This document shows, piece by piece, positions 1-45,542 of a DNA stretch of 58,560 nt (its first letter is position 1; each line of letters opens with the position of its first letter). Source of the DNA: Candidatus Doudnabacteria bacterium. Lineage in GTDB: Bacteria; Patescibacteriota; Doudnabacteria; UBA920; O2-02-FULL-48-8. Where the stretch lies: contig JACPFQ010000003.1 in assembly GCA_016182875.1 (NCBI GenBank), positions 1 to 58,560 on the forward strand. Direction: 5' to 3'. A program made the translations under genes and the position numbers. The notes under the pieces are model-generated. The model saw nothing but the letters and a program-made list of their open reading frames with translations, searched no databases and was not told where the DNA came from.

Positions 1-1068
1 TTTGAATTCAGGAATTTAGTGCACCAGTTAATTGTTTAACCGTTGTGGACATGACTTCATTGGGAGTCTTGAATTTAAGCTTCTTCCTCGGCCGGTTATT
101 GAGCTTTTCCTGTATGCGGTAGATTTGTTCATCCGTTACCGTAGACATATCCGTAGCTTTAGGCAAATATCTCCGGATTAAGCCAACGGCATTCTCAACC
201 CCGCCTTTTTGCCAGGCAGAGTACGGGTCACAGAAGAACGTCTCGATATCATAGCCGTCTCTGAGCTTAGTGTGGCAGGCATTCTCCAGTCCGTTGTCAA
301 AAGTAATACTCTTAACCAGCTCAGCAGGGAAGCTTTCGATGGTTTGATTTAAGGCAGCTTCGTTTTCTTCCGCAGACTTGTTTGTGGTCCTGGTGATCTG
401 AATCAGCATAGCTTTTCTTTCATACTGCACTGAGAGTGCGGCTTTTTGTTTTCTGAATGCCGCCAGATCCGATTCCCAGTCTCCGAACCGTTCTCTCAGG
501 TTGATCTGATTGGGGCGATCTTTGATGGAAACCCGCTGTTTAATCATGGTTTTAGCTTGTTGCTTGCGTCCAAAGCGTCTTCGTCTTTTGGGATGTTTCC
601 TAACCAAGTAGTGATACCAGCCCTCGTATCTGCCTTCGCCATTGTAAATGAAATCATAAATTTGTTCGTGGCTAATGGCGAGACCTGTTAACTCTTTGGG
701 TGGTCCATGCTTGAGCTTGCCTGAGATCAGCTCCGGGCTCCAGCCTTCTTTCAGTTGGGCTTGGACATAATCGTGCAGCTGCTTGTTAGCCTCAAGCTTG
801 CGCTTGTTGGTCCTGTGGGATTTAAACTCTGCTAGTTTCTGAGCCGTATCTGCCCGATACTTGCCATGCTTGCTGTTGCGCTTTAATTCCCGAGAAATGA
901 CTGCATGATCCCGTTTCAACCTCCTGCCGATCTGCCTGGGACCTAATTTCAGCTTTAAGTAATATTCGATTCTTTGCCGCTCATACAGGCTTAAAATTTG
1001 CATAGTTGTCAGAGTTATGTTTACAGGGTTATTTTACCCTGAAGTGGTGCACTCTGACCTGAATGCAG
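1..1068 (-). mobile_element. IS30-family insertion sequence abutting the window start
   Basis: Transposase ORF 8..1003. Imperfect terminal inverted repeats at about 3-32 (TGAATTCAGG...AGTGCACCA) and 1039-1068 (TGGTGCACT...CCTGAATGCA). Confidence 0.8.
8..1003 (-). CDS. IS30-family DDE transposase
   Basis: 331 aa. N-terminal HTH (YERQRIEYYLKLKLGPRQIGRRLKRDHAVISRELKRN). DDE core motifs DWESDL, FDNGLEN and C-terminal RPRKKLKFKTP are typical of IS30. Confidence 0.95.
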   Translation of the reverse strand: MQILSLYERQRIEYYLKLKLGPRQIGRRLKRDHAVISRELKRNSKHGKYRADTAQKLAEFKSHRTNKRKLEANKQLHDYVQAQLKEGWSPELISGKLKHGPPKELTGLAISHEQIYDFIYNGEGRYEGWYHYLVRKHPKRRRRFGRKQQAKTMIKQRVSIKDRPNQINLRERFGDWESDLAAFRKQKAALSVQYERKAMLIQITRTTNKSAEENEAALNQTIESFPAELVKSITFDNGLENACHTKLRDGYDIETFFCDPYSAWQKGGVENAVGLIRRYLPKATDMSTVTDEQIYRIQEKLNNRPRKKLKFKTPNEVMSTTVKQLTGALNS

Positions 1069-1175: not shown

Positions 1176-2024
1176 ATGCGTAGATTAATCGCGTTCACCG
1201 TCGTCGCGCTGCTCGTTTCGTTCGTGCCCGTTTCCGTCGCTCAGGCACAGACCAACCCGTTCGCGGAAAAGATCACGGTCCGCCTCGGTGTTGGCGGCGT
1301 GAACTTGATCGACGATGTCGAAGAGTCGACGACGTTGGTCAAGGATATCCGAGTTCGGTACCGGATCAACCAGCCCTGGGCCGTCGAGTTCCGCACAAAC
1401 ATCGGCCAGGGCGGCATCGAGCCGAACTACTTCAGGATCACCGACTCGAAGTCCAGAATCAGGGACTTCAACGCTCGCGTCGAGCATCGACGCGGGATCC
1501 TCGTGCTACACGGTGGCGTCGAGTATCTGGCGACTACCGGAGACAATACCAGCACCGTCGAGGTTCTCAGCGGACCGAGGCCGTCATACTGGTGGATGTC
1601 GTCGTATACGCCATGGCCCACCGTCATCGGCCACGCCCGCAGGCAGGAACGACACAGCAGCTCACTTCTCGCTCCGTACGCCGGCGTGGGAGCTTCGGTC
1701 GAGACGAGCGACCGTGTGACGGGATACAGCAACATCCAAGCGCTTATCGGCGTACGTCGGACCGATGAGCGCACCGTCACGTTCCGCGACAACCCCTACA
1801 GCGACGGGTACATCGAGGAGTTCAAAGGCCGGACCTGGGGCTGGGGCTGGGACTTCGGCGGCAGGATACGGCTCATCAGGAGGCTCTCGGTCGAGGCCGA
1901 CGTTGCACTGACCCAGTTCTTCGGGCCGGACGACGTCTCAGAGAACCGGACAGGGAACCCGCAGCTGGACAGCAGGTCGCTCGACCGCACACGGGGTGGT
2001 GTCCGCGCCGTTTACGGGTTCTGA
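1176..2024 (+). CDS. Secreted beta-barrel outer-membrane-protein-like protein (GC-rich island 1)
   Basis: 282 aa. Signal peptide MRRLIAFTVVALLVSFVPVSVAQAQ, alternating beta-strand pattern, C-terminal beta-signal-like GVRAVYGF. Strong SD. Composition far more GC-rich than the flanks. Confidence 0.7.
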   Translation: MRRLIAFTVVALLVSFVPVSVAQAQTNPFAEKITVRLGVGGVNLIDDVEESTTLVKDIRVRYRINQPWAVEFRTNIGQGGIEPNYFRITDSKSRIRDFNARVEHRRGILVLHGGVEYLATTGDNTSTVEVLSGPRPSYWWMSSYTPWPTVIGHARRQERHSSSLLAPYAGVGASVETSDRVTGYSNIQALIGVRRTDERTVTFRDNPYSDGYIEEFKGRTWGWGWDFGGRIRLIRRLSVEADVALTQFFGPDDVSENRTGNPQLDSRSLDRTRGGVRAVYGF

Positions 2025-4623: not shown

Positions 4624-4896
4624 CCACAAGTCATTAAGCTTGGGATTTATGCTTCTTATCAACTTGAACTTTTTTACTCTGGTCCATCCCTTTATTTTTT
4701 TCTCCGCAGTTAACGCTTCGTCATTTATATTGCTAAACTCCTCTACAAACAAAAGTTTATTAACATTATATCTCTTTGTAAATCCTTTACGTTTCTTATT
4801 ACGATGTTCGTCCATGCGCCTATAAATATTATTAGTGACTCCTGTATAAATTACACTATGCCATTGATTTGACGCTATGTAAACGTAATAGCTCAT
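4600..4896 (-). CDS. GIY-YIG nuclease family protein (UPF0213-like)
   Basis: 98 aa. YYVYIASN...VIYTGVTNNIYRRMDEH...GFTKRY...LLFVEEF...A..E.KIKGW is the classic GIY-YIG pattern. Confidence 0.9.
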   Translation of the reverse strand: MSYYVYIASNQWHSVIYTGVTNNIYRRMDEHRNKKRKGFTKRYNVNKLLFVEEFSNINDEALTAEKKIKGWTRVKKFKLIRSINPKLNDLWDSSLRSE

Positions 4897-9228: not shown

Positions 9229-9588
9229 ATGCGCTCAAGCGCTAATCGGGATTTTGTCCCGACCAGCGAACAGGTGCAGACGATGCTGGGTCGGGCCAAG
9301 TCCGCTCCCGTAATCAGTCTAGCATTTGCCCTGCTCGCTCAACTGGCCATCCAGCATCGCCGCTACCTGGAATATCTCCGATTCTGGGAAGACCGAAAAC
9401 CGGCAAAAGCCAACATCCTCGCTTTCTATGAAGGACTTCACGTGCGGCAATGTCCCAAAGCCATTCGCGACAAGGTCAAAGAGATTATCGCAGATATTTC
9501 TGCGATACCCACTGAGCCGCAAGCCGCAGCAAGTACCCAACGCTACGGGACGCCACGCAAAAGACTGCGCAGTGCCGCACCCCCTTAG
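9229..9588 (+). CDS. Hypothetical protein (GC-rich island 2), antisense to the flanking GT operon
   Basis: 119-aa ORF with AAGGAGGG 6-7 nt before the ATG. It is GC-rich compared with the flanking GT2 genes. No recognisable domain. Confidence 0.5.
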   Translation: MRSSANRDFVPTSEQVQTMLGRAKSAPVISLAFALLAQLAIQHRRYLEYLRFWEDRKPAKANILAFYEGLHVRQCPKAIRDKVKEIIADISAIPTEPQAAASTQRYGTPRKRLRSAAPP

Positions 9589-18397: not shown

Positions 18398-18919
18398 TTA
18401 GTCATGAAGCACACGACCTTCAAGAACGCTAACGTTGAATTCAACATCCAACTCATGCAAAATTTGTTTGAACTCTGCCAATAACTTAAATCGACCGATA
18501 AATACGCTTTTTTGCAACTGGGTAAAATTGTTCTCTTTCAAAAACCGCCGCAGAAAATTTCTAGCCTTTCTTTTTTCCTCGGGAATGTCAAAAATTACAA
18601 TCGTCGCTAAACCATCGGTCCGTGCGGTCTTAGTTTTCTTTTTATACGTCCAAACCAATGCCCTTGCCTTCCCCAGATCAGTAAGCTCGTATTTGATTTG
18701 CTCACGGTATTTCTTCATGCGGATAAGCCGTTGTTTCTTTAGATCCTCTGCAGCGCGTCTAATCTTTAATAGTGTTATCTGCTTTTTAGGATAGTGGCTG
18801 GCGACGTAGCCTCGGGTATCAGTAAAAATATCCACAAGCCCCAGAGGCATCCTTAATAAAACCAGAAGGATCTCTTTAGTTAGCTCAAACGCTTGCTTTT
18901 GTAATTTTCTCTTAGTCAT
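18398..18919 (-). CDS. PaaX-like regulator: winged-helix N-terminus fused to a Cas2-fold C-terminal domain
   Basis: ATG start at 18919 (MTKRKLQ). The C-terminus LATIVIFDIPEEKRKARNFLRRFLKENNFTQLQKSVFIGRF matches the Cas2/PaaX_C ferredoxin-like pattern. There is no CRISPR context. Confidence 0.65.
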   Translation of the reverse strand: MTKRKLQKQAFELTKEILLVLLRMPLGLVDIFTDTRGYVASHYPKKQITLLKIRRAAEDLKKQRLIRMKKYREQIKYELTDLGKARALVWTYKKKTKTARTDGLATIVIFDIPEEKRKARNFLRRFLKENNFTQLQKSVFIGRFKLLAEFKQILHELDVEFNVSVLEGRVLHD

Positions 18920-18926
18920 AAATAAC

Positions 18927-18962
18927 CTTAACACCTTTTGGACGATCGTCAATTTTACGTTT
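18927..18962 (-). promoter_or_regulatory. Operator-like motif copy 1 upstream of the PaaX-like gene
   Basis: Minus strand ACGTAAAATTGACGATCGTCCAAAAGGTGTTAAGG ends 8 nt before the ATG. Perfect 10-bp palindrome GACGATCGTC at 18941-18950. Contains TTGACG. Confidence 0.45.
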
Positions 18963-28567: not shown

Positions 28568-29857
28568 GTGCGCATGACAATTGCAATGCTGGTGTTTCTG
28601 CTTGGGCTTGCCAGCTCTGGCATCGTCTCGGCGCAGACGCTCCCCGACCGGTTCAGTTCCCGAGCCGAGTGCCTGGCTGCTCTCAAAAGCGGCCGATACC
28701 GGGCTTACGTGCCCAGTTTCCTCACGCTCAAGCGTGAACCGACAGCGGGAGAAGAAGTTCGTCCGCTGGAGGCCAACGCCTGCATGCGGATGCACATCGT
28801 CGGCACCCGCAGGCTATGGGTCGTTCAAATGGCAGGCACGGAGTTCATCTTCCGCGCTGGTCAACCAGTGGCCAGGTACGACTGCGGCAACGAAGTCTAT
28901 GAAACCGCATACCTGCCTGAGCCAGTTGCGATTCGGCTCCCGCCTCCACCGCCGCCGCCTACCCAGACATTCACTCCGCCACCGGCCATACCAGAACTCC
29001 CGCCTCTACCGCCGGTTCGCCGCTTCCCTCTTCCACCGACATATCAAGAGCCGCCTGACGAAGACGAAGACCTGGAGTTCGTCTGGGACATCTCACCAGG
29101 CGTCATCGGCGGCCCGGTACGCGGTGACTTCCGCTACCCTGACCCAAGACGTGGGGACGCTCCGTGGCGGCATCGCTTCTTTGCTTCGGTGATAAAGGCA
29201 CGGGCAGAGATGCTGACGCCTGACCATAACGCCGGCTTTTTTGCCTCACTAATTACCACCTTCTCAGGTGAAGCCTCGAAGCCGGAGTTCCAGAACATCC
29301 GCGGGGAATGGAACCGCAAGCGGCGTGAAGCCGACGACAGCCGCGACAAGTTCACCGACGTGAAGTTTGGCGTCAAACTGCCAGTCGGCAACATCGTCTC
29401 GGTAGGCGTGGGAGCCGACTACAACAGAATCTGCTTTTGCCAACTGTATCTGGCGCAGAACGCGCGAAGCGAAGATCGGCGCCGGTTCAGTACGTGGGGC
29501 CTGGGAGTCGAGGCCGTGGGCGCTACGGAAGGCCGCGGACTCGTTGCCCGAGCCGGAGGAGTCCTCGGGCTGGCTGGCGACCGAAGGAGATCGTTCAAGC
29601 AGTTCTACCACAGCCCACCGGCAATCGACTTCCCGCCGGTCACAGATCCCAAGGAAGACGCCAAGCGGCATGAACTGGCGGCATCGGTTGAGCTCGGAAT
29701 CGCCTTCGGGGCGAACGAAGCTGACCCGGCGTTCGTGCTCAAGCCGTTCCTCGGGGTGACGTGGTCGAACTGGAAGTCATTCCGGCCCAACACGCATCCG
29801 GCCACGGAGTTCACGACACTCCTCGGTTGGAACGGAGGGCTCGGGTTCAGCTTCTAA
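28568..29857 (+). CDS. Secreted OMP-like protein: N-domain, Pro-rich TonB-like linker, beta-barrel-like C-domain (GC-rich island 4)
   Basis: 429 aa. Signal peptide MRMTIAMLVFLLGLASSGIVSAQ. Linker PPPPPPTQTFTPPPAIPELPPLPPVRRFPLPP. C-terminal beta-signal-like GGLGFSF. Confidence 0.7.
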   Translation: MRMTIAMLVFLLGLASSGIVSAQTLPDRFSSRAECLAALKSGRYRAYVPSFLTLKREPTAGEEVRPLEANACMRMHIVGTRRLWVVQMAGTEFIFRAGQPVARYDCGNEVYETAYLPEPVAIRLPPPPPPPTQTFTPPPAIPELPPLPPVRRFPLPPTYQEPPDEDEDLEFVWDISPGVIGGPVRGDFRYPDPRRGDAPWRHRFFASVIKARAEMLTPDHNAGFFASLITTFSGEASKPEFQNIRGEWNRKRREADDSRDKFTDVKFGVKLPVGNIVSVGVGADYNRICFCQLYLAQNARSEDRRRFSTWGLGVEAVGATEGRGLVARAGGVLGLAGDRRRSFKQFYHSPPAIDFPPVTDPKEDAKRHELAASVELGIAFGANEADPAFVLKPFLGVTWSNWKSFRPNTHPATEFTTLLGWNGGLGFSF

Positions 29858-42947: not shown

Positions 42948-43529
42948 TTAAAACAGCGCTGCTTGCCTGGTGAGCGGCTTTCTGACTTCCGGTTCGGGGA
43001 AGGAAATTTTGATTTCCTTGATCTCGAAGTAATCCTTAAACAAAAGTTTGCCGTACCTGCCTACATAGTCATAAAGTTCTTTGGTGATTTTGACGTCATC
43101 GGTGCAGTATTTTTTCAACTCCTCGATCCGGCCGGCCTTATACAGCTTCAAAGCTTCCAAGCCGTCGCCGCTCTTGCCCATGCCCAAGGTAGTTTGGGCC
43201 AAATTGTCCAGTTTGACCCGGTGGCCGATTAATTTCTCCGCCTCCGCCAATATATCCAGGGTCGGGATATCCTTGAGCGAAAAACTTATATACGGCTGCA
43301 GCACCGGGAAGTCAAAGTTAATGATGTTGAAGCCGATAACCTGGTCGGCTTCCGAAATCATTTCGCCGGCCCGGTAAAGCTGGTTTTCGTCGAAGCAGAA
43401 AAATTTATCCTGGGCGTAAGAGTATATCCCGCAAACCGAAACCTTGAGCAAGTGGTTGCGGTCCCGCCCGCCAACTTCGTCAAATGATTTTTGGGTTTCT
43501 AAATCGAGAACGATTTTATTTACTGCCAT
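42948..43529 (-). CDS. DEDD-type 3'-5' exonuclease (RNase H-like fold, PolB-exo/YprB-like)
   Basis: 193 aa. Exo I LDLET, Exo II GFNIINFD, Exo III YCTDDVKITKELY. Confidence 0.7.
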   Translation of the reverse strand: MAVNKIVLDLETQKSFDEVGGRDRNHLLKVSVCGIYSYAQDKFFCFDENQLYRAGEMISEADQVIGFNIINFDFPVLQPYISFSLKDIPTLDILAEAEKLIGHRVKLDNLAQTTLGMGKSGDGLEALKLYKAGRIEELKKYCTDDVKITKELYDYVGRYGKLLFKDYFEIKEIKISFPEPEVRKPLTRQAALF

Positions 43530-43571
43530 TTAGATTTCTTAAAATACCAATCAATTATAACATAGGTGATT

Positions 43572-43612
43572 TAAAAAATAAAAAAGACCTAGAAAACTTA
43601 ATCTCTAGGTCT
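43572..43612 (-). terminator. Rho-independent terminator
   Basis: Minus strand AGACCTAGA-GATTAAGTTT-TCTAGGTCT followed by TTTTTATTTTTT. Confidence 0.55.
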
Positions 43613-43778
43613 GCTCCTCCAGACCGTCTCCTGTAACTGCTAAAAACAATTATACATTAAAAAAGAGCTGACACTACCGGGTATCAGCCCAGCTTTCGCT
43701 CGGGGACAACAAACCCCAAGCATAATAGCGCAATCCAGACCCGTGAGATAATCCGCACGACATTGGCTTCCGGCAGGC

Positions 43779-44501
43779 CTAACTAGCTGACCTTGCCATT
43801 GCTTGCTTCAGCCTCCTGGCGGCACAGGCGTGGAGCTGAGAGACTCGCGATTCGTTAACCCCGATTGCGGCGCCTATCTGCCTCATGGTCTGCTCGCCGA
43901 AGTAGTAGAGAACAATCACCTTCTGCTCACGTGGTGGGAGCGTGGCGATGGCTCTACGGACCAGCTGGCGTACTTCCTGCCTTTCCAAAGCTTTATCAGG
44001 CTGCTCAGGCTCAGGCGGGACCAAGGACGAAGGCAACAGTGAAGAATCTACACCGTCGCTGTTTGTCAGAGGCGAGGTCGACTCGATAATGTTGATCCGG
44101 ATGATCCTTTTCTCGAGGCGGCGCTCGCTCGTCTGGAGACGTCTGGCTAGATCGGCCAGGGATGGTTCTTCGCCCAGCTCGCGCCTGAGTTCTTCACATG
44201 CCGCTTCCAGCTCACGACGCTGCCGGCGCACTCCTCGCGGCCAGGCGTCTTTGCGCAAGGCGTCAATCATGGCTCCGCGAATCCGGCGCTCGGCAAAAGT
44301 CTGAAACTTGATTCCCCGTCGCTTGTCGAATCGGCGTGCTGCGTCAATCAACCCCAGCACTCCGTCTTGAACCAGGTCGTTCACTTCAACCGAATACGGC
44401 ATGGTTGCAGCCACCCGACGAGCGAGCTGCTCCACGAACGGAATACATTCCAACACTCTTGCTTCCTGTTCCTCAGGAAGCAACATGGTCCGTGCGCTCA
44501 T
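43779..44501 (-). CDS. FliA/WhiG-type (group 3) sigma-70 family sigma factor (GC-rich island 5)
   Basis: 240 aa from MSARTM. AGGAGG lies 6 nt upstream. Region 2 DLVQDGVLGLIDAARRFD and TFAERRIRGAMIDALR. Region 4 LPPREQKVIVLYYFGEQTMRQIGAAIGVNESRVSQL. Confidence 0.85.
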   Translation of the reverse strand: MSARTMLLPEEQEARVLECIPFVEQLARRVAATMPYSVEVNDLVQDGVLGLIDAARRFDKRRGIKFQTFAERRIRGAMIDALRKDAWPRGVRRQRRELEAACEELRRELGEEPSLADLARRLQTSERRLEKRIIRINIIESTSPLTNSDGVDSSLLPSSLVPPEPEQPDKALERQEVRQLVRRAIATLPPREQKVIVLYYFGEQTMRQIGAAIGVNESRVSQLHACAARRLKQAMARSAS

Positions 44502-44581
44502 GTAAATCCTCCTGATGAACGTGAATAAACGAATTATAACACAAACGCCGACAACTATGGTATAATGGTCAAGCAAATTTC

Positions 44582-44626
44582 ATGCAAAGAACCTTAATCA
44601 AAGACACAATCAACCTAAGCAAATAG
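44582..44626 (+). pseudogene. Duplicate aspS 5' end, fragment 1
   Basis: Encodes MQRTLIKDTINLSK*, compared with the genuine AspRS N-terminus MQRTLTKDTINKTG at 45558. Confidence 0.6.
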
Positions 44627-44749: not shown

Positions 44750-44868
44750 ATGCAGCGGACACTCATAAAAGACACAGTTAATAAAATTGGCCAAACCGTG
44801 CTTCTAAAAGGCTGGGTAAACATCAGGCGCGATTCATCCACAAGCTGATGTTCTCCAATTGCGCGCTT
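44750..44868 (+). pseudogene. Duplicate aspS 5' end, fragment 2 (frameshifted)
   Basis: Encodes MQRTLIKDTVNKIGQTVLLKGWVNIRRDSSTS*, compared with the genuine MQRTLTKDTINKTGGAVLLKGWVNVRRDHGKLIF. Nucleotide similarity continues to about 44868 with a 1-nt indel. Confidence 0.75.
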
Positions 44869-44893: not shown

Positions 44894-45145
44894 ATGAGAC
44901 AATCTACAATTACCAAAATTAAAAATGGCAAAATAACCCTGCCTAAGGACCTACAAAAAGAATGGAAAGAAGGCGAGGTGCTTTTCATGCGCTCATCAGG
45001 CGGCTTTCTCATCAAGTCCATTACTCCTCCTTCCCTGTCAGCTCTACGACCGAAACTAAAAAAATTAGGCAAACTTGTATCCAGCAAGGATATTGATGAC
45101 GCCGTCAGCTGGGCCCGACAAAAAACCTATGCTGGTCGTACTTGA
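44894..45145 (+). CDS. AbrB/MazE/SpoVT-fold antitoxin-like protein
   Basis: 83 aa from MRQSTITKIKNGKITLPKDLQKEWKEGEVLF, a swapped-hairpin-like motif. Overlaps the PIN gene by 17 nt. Confidence 0.65.
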   Translation: MRQSTITKIKNGKITLPKDLQKEWKEGEVLFMRSSGGFLIKSITPPSLSALRPKLKKLGKLVSSKDIDDAVSWARQKTYAGRT

Positions 45146-45542
45146 TACTAACGTTTTGATATCAGCGCTGCTTTATAAGAAACGTCTGGGTAAAATAGGT
45201 GATTTGATTGAACAAGGGAGCTTGACTCCCTGTTTTATTGCGTCAACCTGGAGAGAACTAGAGAGTGTCCTTCGTTACCCCAAGTTTCAGCCCAAAATAA
45301 AATCGCTAAATACAACGCCTGAAGAAATCGCTCAATCACTCAGTTTGCAAAGCGCGATATTTCCCGACCCTAACAATGTTCCCAAGTTAGTCACACATTC
45401 TGGCGACAATTTTATCCTTGCTACAACTATTGCCGCAAAAGCTTCTTATATCATTACTGGCGACAAAGAGTTGCTTGCCCTTAAAAAATTTAAAAACACG
45501 TCTATTATTTCTCCAGTTCAATTCACCCAGATTGTGTTATAA
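45129..45542 (+). CDS. PIN-domain toxin-like ribonuclease
   Basis: 137 aa. MLVVLDTNVLISAL (first acidic residue) and a later ITGDKELL motif. Typical PIN toxin of a type II TA pair. Confidence 0.8.
   Translation: MLVVLDTNVLISALLYKKRLGKIGDLIEQGSLTPCFIASTWRELESVLRYPKFQPKIKSLNTTPEEIAQSLSLQSAIFPDPNNVPKLVTHSGDNFILATTIAAKASYIITGDKELLALKKFKNTSIISPVQFTQIVL

Follow-up and report, generated by a model that had tools for sequence, protein, structure and literature searches.

The 58,560-nucleotide stretch of contig JACPFQ010000003.1 from a Candidatus Doudnabacteria bacterium (GenBank assembly GCA_016182875.1), referred to here as the window, carries a gene for a sigma factor of the sigma-28 (FliA/WhiG) family at positions 43779 to 44501 on the minus strand. 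This gene is a cross-phylum import from a lineage rich in guanine plus cytosine (GC) whose nearest sampled relatives are of the Acidobacteriota type. The favored explanation, considered probable here, describes a horizontally acquired orphan gene that is kept and transcribed by its host, a member of the candidate phyla radiation (CPR)/Patescibacteria. The gene sits in an intergenic slot between aspS and an exonuclease gene, which is empty or otherwise filled in relatives, and it has left its native control behind, with the loss of a sigma-54 promoter, a C-terminal extension, and all donor neighbors. According to the favored explanation, the host housekeeping holoenzyme would transcribe the gene from the motif TGTTATAAT, and translation would proceed from a retained Shine-Dalgarno site. 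The product is predicted to bind, with no cognate anti-sigma factor involved, to the core RNA polymerase of the host and to read promoters with a −35 TAAA element and a −10 GCCGATAA-like element; any targets would lie outside the 58-kb window. In CPR bacteria, genomes are very small and regulators scarce. The gene belongs to a known kind, and its transfer into such a genome is well documented but demonstrates no new mechanism; with no target genes visible, it represents a clear gene transfer and not a new kind of system. An intact alternative sigma factor that crossed phyla and exchanged sigma-54 control for a putative host-type promoter makes a clean and datable case of regulator transfer. 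With its variable slot, its imports bearing Shine-Dalgarno sequences where host genes have none, and outer-membrane-type genes in a monoderm, the locus also offers a tractable case for studying how such bacteria take up and express foreign DNA.

The coding sequence starts with the ATG at position 44501 and encodes a protein of 240 amino acids, as determined from the open reading frame (ORF), Pfam, NCBIfam, and structure alignments. A longer ORF with a TTG start reaching position 44576 was rejected as the gene; its 5' extension overlaps a remnant of aspS on the opposite strand. Pfam detects Sigma70_r2 (6e-17) and Sigma70_r4 (4e-15) in the protein, with sigma region 3 scoring weakly (19 bits, under the cutoff of 25.3). 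The NCBIfam model TIGR02479 (FliA_WhiG) matches residues 20 to 235 at model positions 6 to 223 of 224 with 196 bits, a small margin over the cutoff of 189.6, and the solved structures of WhiG (6pfv, 144 bits) and Escherichia coli FliA (6pmi, 127 bits) align across residues 13 to 236. Because the TIGR02479 match is full length and the WhiG and FliA structures align end to end, regions 2, 3, and 4 are all present. The protein shows the group-3 architecture of sigma2, sigma3, and sigma4 without region 1.1 (Pfam and 6pfv/6pmi alignments). It scores below the subfamily cutoffs for both FliA proper (NF005413, 183.9 versus 201 bits) and WhiG proper (NF004935, 188.7 versus 343 bits). It consists of the core only, ends 5 residues past region 4.2, and is an ordinary member of its family. 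The GC content of the gene is 58%, compared to a window mean of 48.5%, and 200-nucleotide (nt) windows show values of 0.55 to 0.64 over positions ∼43650 to 44500, compared to 0.485 for the whole window. An earlier reading of this DNA from its letters alone (the sequence-only reading) had described a group-3 factor with regions 2, 3, and 4 in a GC-rich island, preceded by AGGAGG 6 nt from the ATG and followed by a hairpin with a T-run; this description is right at every checkable point.

The origin of the gene is indicated by its relatives. A search of 5.8 billion sequences found nothing closer to the sigma protein than 76% identity. The closest proteins, 70 to 76% identical, belong to a very large cluster with an internal identity of ∼93%, labeled FliA by the Joint Genome Institute. 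One close relative is named Thermoanaerobaculia, and the GlnA encoded ∼5 kb from the sigma gene of another close relative shows an 83% match to Vicinamibacterales; Thermoanaerobaculia and Vicinamibacterales both belong to the Acidobacteriota. Representatives of clusters at 50% identity form a graded family, with 69, 65, 64, and 59% identity and so on down to generic FliA/WhiG at ∼40%. The phylogenetic placement among sigma-28 family members that the sequence-only reading had suggested was carried out by neighbor joining and shows the protein nested within the Acidobacteriota-type clade as a branch of its own, with E. coli FliA and Streptomyces WhiG distant (38 to 39%). The gene is absent from the same slot in all six related Doudnabacteria loci (L011, L012, L013/L014, L015, L016, and L017), and a scan of a genome-contig collection with the single sigma protein returned only distant sigma factors with 22 to 32% identity. 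The notion of a foreign stand-alone sigma factor is borne out. GC-rich contigs carrying sigma genes of the donor family are present in one of the same groundwater sequencing runs that contain the locus.

The gene order around the donor-family sigma gene is conserved in three genomes and comprises a response-regulator sigma-54 activator, an HTH_17 protein, the sigma factor, a hybrid histidine kinase (HisKA), a GGDEF protein, and a GAF-SpoIIE protein. These loci also encode two-component, cyclic di-GMP (GGDEF and PilZ), and PP2C signaling genes, and no flagellar genes lie around the three donor-family sigma genes. In all three genomes, a sigma-54 −24/−12 element, TGGTAYC-N3-GTTGCCTTA, is found 23 to 41 nt before the ATG and beside the divergent response-regulator activator (L009, 9961 to 9979; L010, 9960 to 9978; L019, 9960 to 9978). 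Because this element is shared and the synteny is nonflagellar, the sigma factor of the donor genomes is regarded as a sigma-54-dependent nonflagellar regulator, which would imply a cascade from sigma-54 to a sigma-28-like factor apart from flagella in Acidobacteriota-type bacteria. The TGGTAYC-N3-GTTGCCTTA motif is absent from the window, where the neighbors of the sigma gene are host genes.

Homology to the donors is limited to positions 44480 to 43785. The following DNA (43778 to 43691) shows no homology to donor downstream DNA, and no frame of this 3' stretch matches the donor C-terminal extension; some members of the clade (P0035 and P0066) also lack the extension. The transferred fragment measures ∼860 bp (about 44516 to 43660) and comprises the ribosome-binding site, the sigma core, and a short 3' tail.

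The signals around the gene show a mixed provenance. The Shine-Dalgarno sequence AGGAGG (44508 to 44513, minus strand), with its 6-nt spacer to the ATG, is of the donor type, as GGAGG stands equally far from the start codon in the donor genes. None of the ∼50 host genes in the window has a Shine-Dalgarno sequence, and AGGAGG occurs only on four GC-rich ORFs (1176 to 2024, 9229 to 9588, 28568 to 29857, and 43779 to 44501), whose third-codon GC contents range from 0.80 to 0.57, as if they had been acquired at different times. The DNA 5' of the ribosome-binding site of the sigma gene is AT-rich. It contains, 40 nt 5' of the ATG (44533 to 44541, minus strand), the host-type extended −10 motif TGTTATAAT, a putative promoter. 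This 9-mer, which is also present before the host exonuclease gene and before aspS, stands where the donor genomes have their sigma-54 promoter. On the 3' side, two terminators were found where one hairpin had been noted before. The first, a terminator-like hairpin with a T-run (43655 to 43690, minus strand; stem 43690 to 43665, 10 pairs, some of them G-T), closes the GC-rich 3' untranslated stretch and probably marks where the foreign DNA ends on its 3' side. The second (43577 to 43612, minus strand) is cleaner, with an 11-pair stem (43612 to 43585) and the tail TTTTTTATTTTTT; this tail is conserved before the exonuclease promoter in relatives, which identifies the second terminator as host sequence. 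An Rfam scan of the window detected one tRNA and nothing else.

The RNase H-like 3'-5' exonuclease gene (42948 to 43529, minus strand), a conserved host gene, bounds the variable slot on the right and served as an anchor for finding related loci, in six of which the same slot was read. The slot is empty in L015 (2283 to 2437) save for a stranded GC-rich terminator. It holds a small KGG stress-protein gene in L011 (5590 to 5960), a KGG gene and a sigma-54-type activator in L016 (3654 to 4961), and a sigma-54-type activator alone in L012 (4849 to 5907). In L017 (4423 to 4911), it contains an NYN nuclease gene, and a YafQ toxin-antitoxin pair lies upstream of aspS in a place matching that of a pair in the window; L013/L014 has purL on the other side and no cargo. 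In every case, the cargo is directed toward the exonuclease gene (window slot, 43530 to 44520). The cargo of L011, L012, L016, and the window lies behind a consensus-like promoter and has a Shine-Dalgarno sequence; the NYN gene of L017 is AT-rich and is preceded only by the motif TGCTATAAT. In four of five cases, the cargo is followed on its 3' side by a hairpin whose tail is rich in T (TTTTTTATTT or a similar sequence); L017 lacks such a tail. The aspS promoter TGGTATAAT is also present in the relatives L011 and L015.

The activators of L012 (4849 to 5907) and L016 (3951 to 4961) consist of an AAA+ domain and HTH_8 and have no receiver domain. A joint transfer of activator and sigma gene was considered and rejected, as these activators are only 37 to 50% identical to the donor-adjacent activators. 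Codons 5 to 10 of the sigma gene (44472 to 44489, minus strand) share 16 of 18 nt with the L012 activator (4843 to 4860) in the form ACC-ATG/TTG-TTG/ATG-CTT-CCT-GAG, equally far from the start codon and within the same slot, a score that 3 of 500 shuffles also reach. A shared host leader in the first 10 codons was rejected as an explanation, since the L016 activator and the other cassettes lack the 18-nt match, which is probably due to chance.

The state of the gene argues for its retention. Of 196 columns without variation in the donor family, the protein keeps 162 (83%), and its changes are mostly conservative. The motifs ESRVSQ and PRGVRR are retained; by alignment with E. coli FliA and WhiG, they correspond to S224/Q228 and R97/R101 of Pseudomonas aeruginosa sigma-28, whose roles in contacting the −35 and extended −10 elements were described for the open complex (PMC12784957). 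The pocket for −11A keeps an aromatic residue, with F in place of Y. Since the protein has kept the residues that touch these elements in solved sigma-28 complexes, it is predicted to read GCCGATAA-type promoters. The GC contents at codon positions 1, 2, and 3 are 0.65, 0.46, and 0.635, respectively; positions 1 and 2 are donor-like, and position 3 compares to 0.73 to 0.91 in four donors and 0.558 ± 0.039 in host genes. In neutral simulations that lower the position-3 GC content to 0.635, the ORF stays open in 0 to 0.3% of 300 runs, with protein identities of 18 to 36%. The protein distance to outgroups exceeds that of the main donor cluster by only ∼12%, some other family members being farther away, and the ratio of nonsynonymous to synonymous substitution rates against the donors is ∼0.15. 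The near-host third-codon GC content together with the intact frame suggests that the gene has been kept by selection, if the donor was GC-rich like the sampled relatives. Under the same proviso, neutral decay is hard to reconcile with a gene that is intact, keeps its contacts, and approaches the host in third-codon GC content. The sequence-only reading had raised the possibility of inert cargo of an old integrative element; the word inert sits poorly with the intact frame and DNA-contact residues, the host-type promoter, and the near-host third-codon GC content.

Several observations weigh against a kept and functioning gene. The selection argument assumes that the true donor was as GC-rich as the sampled relatives, and the protein is an outlier, at 70 to 76% identity, to a cluster with an internal identity of 93%; a donor of lower GC content combined with a recent transfer is possible. 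The gene is lineage specific, and the population shows no polymorphism; as the contigs of all runs are identical, selection is not measurable at the population level. A relaxed scan of the window for sigma-28 promoters gave 1 hit, with 0.93 expected, and no promoter of this type lies upstream of any GC-rich cassette in the window. None of the ∼50 window genes contains a flagellar or chemotaxis Pfam domain. No anti-sigma factor adjoins the gene, whose neighbors are the exonuclease gene, a small ORF without a Pfam match, and a PIN gene (window ORFs of <90 amino acids elsewhere were not scanned), and none of the RNA sequencing runs searched contains the sigma gene.

Further promoter searches give a similar picture. 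A strict scan of the window for TAAA-N14-17-GCCGATAW yielded one hit, located antisense within a gene and equaled in 6 of 100 shuffles, and no TAAA-N15-GCCGATAA promoters were found in the other loci retrieved. Three of the other GC-rich cassettes show sigma-70-like promoters by eye, the one before 1176 to 2024 being a poor match. The earlier proposal that the factor could redirect RNA polymerase to these cassettes thus finds no support, with strict and relaxed scans at chance level and no hit before the cassettes; the absence of flagellar or chemotaxis context in the window had been noted correctly.

The main rival explanation, rated as rather unlikely, regards the gene as a neutral passenger: a recently captured fragment in a permissive slot of fast turnover that is intact only through its youth, has no host targets, and will decay. 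It draws on the changing contents of the slot, with nothing but a stranded GC-rich terminator in L015 and with KGG, a sigma-54 activator, NYN, or toxin-antitoxin cargo elsewhere, as well as on the lineage-specific occurrence of the gene, the failure to find sigma-28 promoters in the window, and the loss of sigma-54 control, C-terminal extension, and partners. Other odd cargo in the genome, namely outer-membrane-type β-barrel genes in a monoderm of the sortase/SpaA type, also fits a passenger. A passenger would, however, have to reach a third-codon GC content near that of the host from the 0.73 to 0.91 seen in the four relatives, a shift that almost always closes the frame under neutrality, and would have to retain the contact residues and 83% of the family-invariant columns without marked acceleration of protein change. 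The position of the gene directly behind a host-type promoter motif is likewise at odds with this explanation.

A bolder reading, unlikely when taken as a whole, regards the aspS/exonuclease interval as a dedicated expression slot of the Doudnabacteria. Promoterless genes carrying a Shine-Dalgarno sequence would be taken from diderm neighbors, possibly the physical host of a presumed epibiont, and placed behind a host promoter. The sigma factor would then be a domesticated regulator of a small set of captured genes, e.g., the outer-membrane-type cassettes or host interaction genes elsewhere. If true, a CPR bacterium would for the first time be seen to have acquired a functional alternative sigma factor across phyla.

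It is very improbable that the gene belongs to a mobile element, be it a phage, a plasmid, or an integrative element, whose own sigma factor serves to seize the transcription of the host. Repeated insertions alongside the gene are marked by aspS 5' remnants and a toxin-antitoxin pair. The first remnant follows the divergent original aspS promoter TGGTATAAT (44558 to 44566) and runs from an ATG at 44582 to 44614, the two together spanning 44558 to 44614 on the plus strand. The second (44750 to 44860, plus strand) is ∼72% identical and carries a 2-nt indel leading to a premature stop. The sequence-only reading had placed one decayed aspS duplicate beside the gene; its presence is confirmed at 44750 to 44860, but there are two remnants. 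Between the second remnant and the intact aspS (from 45558) lies the toxin-antitoxin pair (44894 to 45542, plus strand), formed by a small AbrB/SpoVT-like ORF without a Pfam match and a PIN toxin. The nested aspS 5' ends suggest repeated insertions at this site, each supplying a replacement 5' end. The repeats bound the toxin-antitoxin insert, which is neighboring cargo separate from the sigma insert, and the sigma gene lies outside them. An IS30-like ORF at 8 to 1003 is also present, but no integrase, recombinase, or phage gene was found within several kilobases of the sigma gene. No attachment-type repeats bound the insert, which thus differs from an integron or integrative element, and the suggested old integrative element is not borne out. 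The cassette ends share no sequence save for one 18-nt match of doubtful meaning. Phage and plasmid matches reach at most 38% identity, a viral contig scan found no relative, and PADLOC gives only a weak domain-level match to MzaA. The closest relatives in the three donor genomes are syntenic chromosomal genes.

A native Doudnabacteria sigma factor serving a flagellar or other vertically inherited regulon has nothing in its favor beyond the family name and is close to refuted. The gene is absent from the six related loci, in which no CPR homologue was seen either; nothing closer than 76% turned up in the search of the 5.8 billion sequences, and the Acidobacteriota type is shared by the three donor loci examined and by the one close relative that has a name. 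Its composition and use of a Shine-Dalgarno sequence are unlike those of all host genes, and the window contains no flagellar genes.

A short GC-rich stretch in a contig that is otherwise richer in AT typically raises the suspicion of an assembly chimera or binning contaminant, but this can practically be dismissed, since the sigma protein, both junctions, and the neighbors were assembled independently in five groundwater metagenome runs, with contigs from four of them showing 0 to 1 differences from the window, uniform depth (56.8, 55.8, 16.4, and 8.7), and no alternative joints. The runs containing the contig are SRR12113383, SRR12113384, SRR12113422, SRR12113424, and SRR12113430. The flanking genes encode the RNase H-like exonuclease, Lgt, a methyltransferase-type DNA-binding protein, an HtrA-like protease, rhamnose pathway enzymes, AspRS, ScpA, and ScpB, and their nearest named homologues belong to Candidatus Doudnabacteria and other Patescibacteria.

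Among known systems, the Acidobacteriota-type FliA-like sigma factors (∼240 to 340 amino acids; thousands of metagenome proteins, e.g., P0018, P0035, and P0079), which are uncharacterized, are closest. The window protein shares 70 to 76% identity with them over sigma2 to sigma4, has an equally spaced GGAGG site, and falls into one clade with them. In contrast to this clade, the window copy lacks the C-terminal extension with its AILEFQ motif, the sigma-54 −24/−12 promoter, and the donor synteny; its third-codon GC content is 0.635 instead of 0.73 to 0.91, and it remains an outlier to the tight cluster. The group-3 FliA proteins of E. coli and P. aeruginosa (PDB entries 6pmi and 9wsm) show ∼37 to 38% identity with conserved −35 and extended −10 contacts. 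Contrary to these, the window protein stays under the FliA subfamily cutoff, and the window shows neither flagellar genes nor, among the ORFs scanned, an FlgM, while its sigma-28 promoter hits do not exceed chance.

WhiG of Streptomyces is a nonflagellar sigma-28 family factor under the control of RsiG and c-di-GMP. Its structure (6pfv) is the best-scoring solved structure for the window protein, it acts outside motility, and the donor loci likewise contain c-di-GMP genes. The window protein differs in its score, well below the equivalog cutoff, in its identity of only 39%, and in that no RsiG-like partner was seen. The chlamydial sigma-28 is kept in a small nonflagellated genome and drives a few late genes. 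It may serve as a functional analogy for an orphan sigma-28 factor in a reduced genome; in contrast to the lineage-specific import of the window, the chlamydial gene is vertically inherited, and its model (PRK05911) gives 116.6 bits compared to a cutoff of 378.

Elsewhere, the window encodes a sortase, SpaA/DUF11 surface proteins, glycosyltransferases, and aminoacyl-tRNA synthetases, and the sortase/SpaA type of the surface proteins implies a single membrane. A protein with a PaaX central/Cas2-like domain is encoded at 18398 to 18952 (minus strand), with no CRISPR array or other cas genes visible nearby. A protein (P0258) with 69% identity to the Doudnabacteria exonuclease is labeled Acidobacteriaceae at NCBI; its source is probably a misbinned CPR contig, and the label may also hint at a co-occurrence of both groups. 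The ORF at 8 to 1003 (minus strand, 331 amino acids) resembles an IS30-type transposase, with HTH_38 and a weak rve match, and adjoins the first GC-rich cassette. This cassette (1176 to 2024, plus strand) and that at 28568 to 29857 (plus strand) encode signal peptides and resemble outer membrane proteins of diderms, each with a terminator of its own; one of the two proteins matches Pfam OMP_b-brl and ends in YGF, and the other ends in GFSF.

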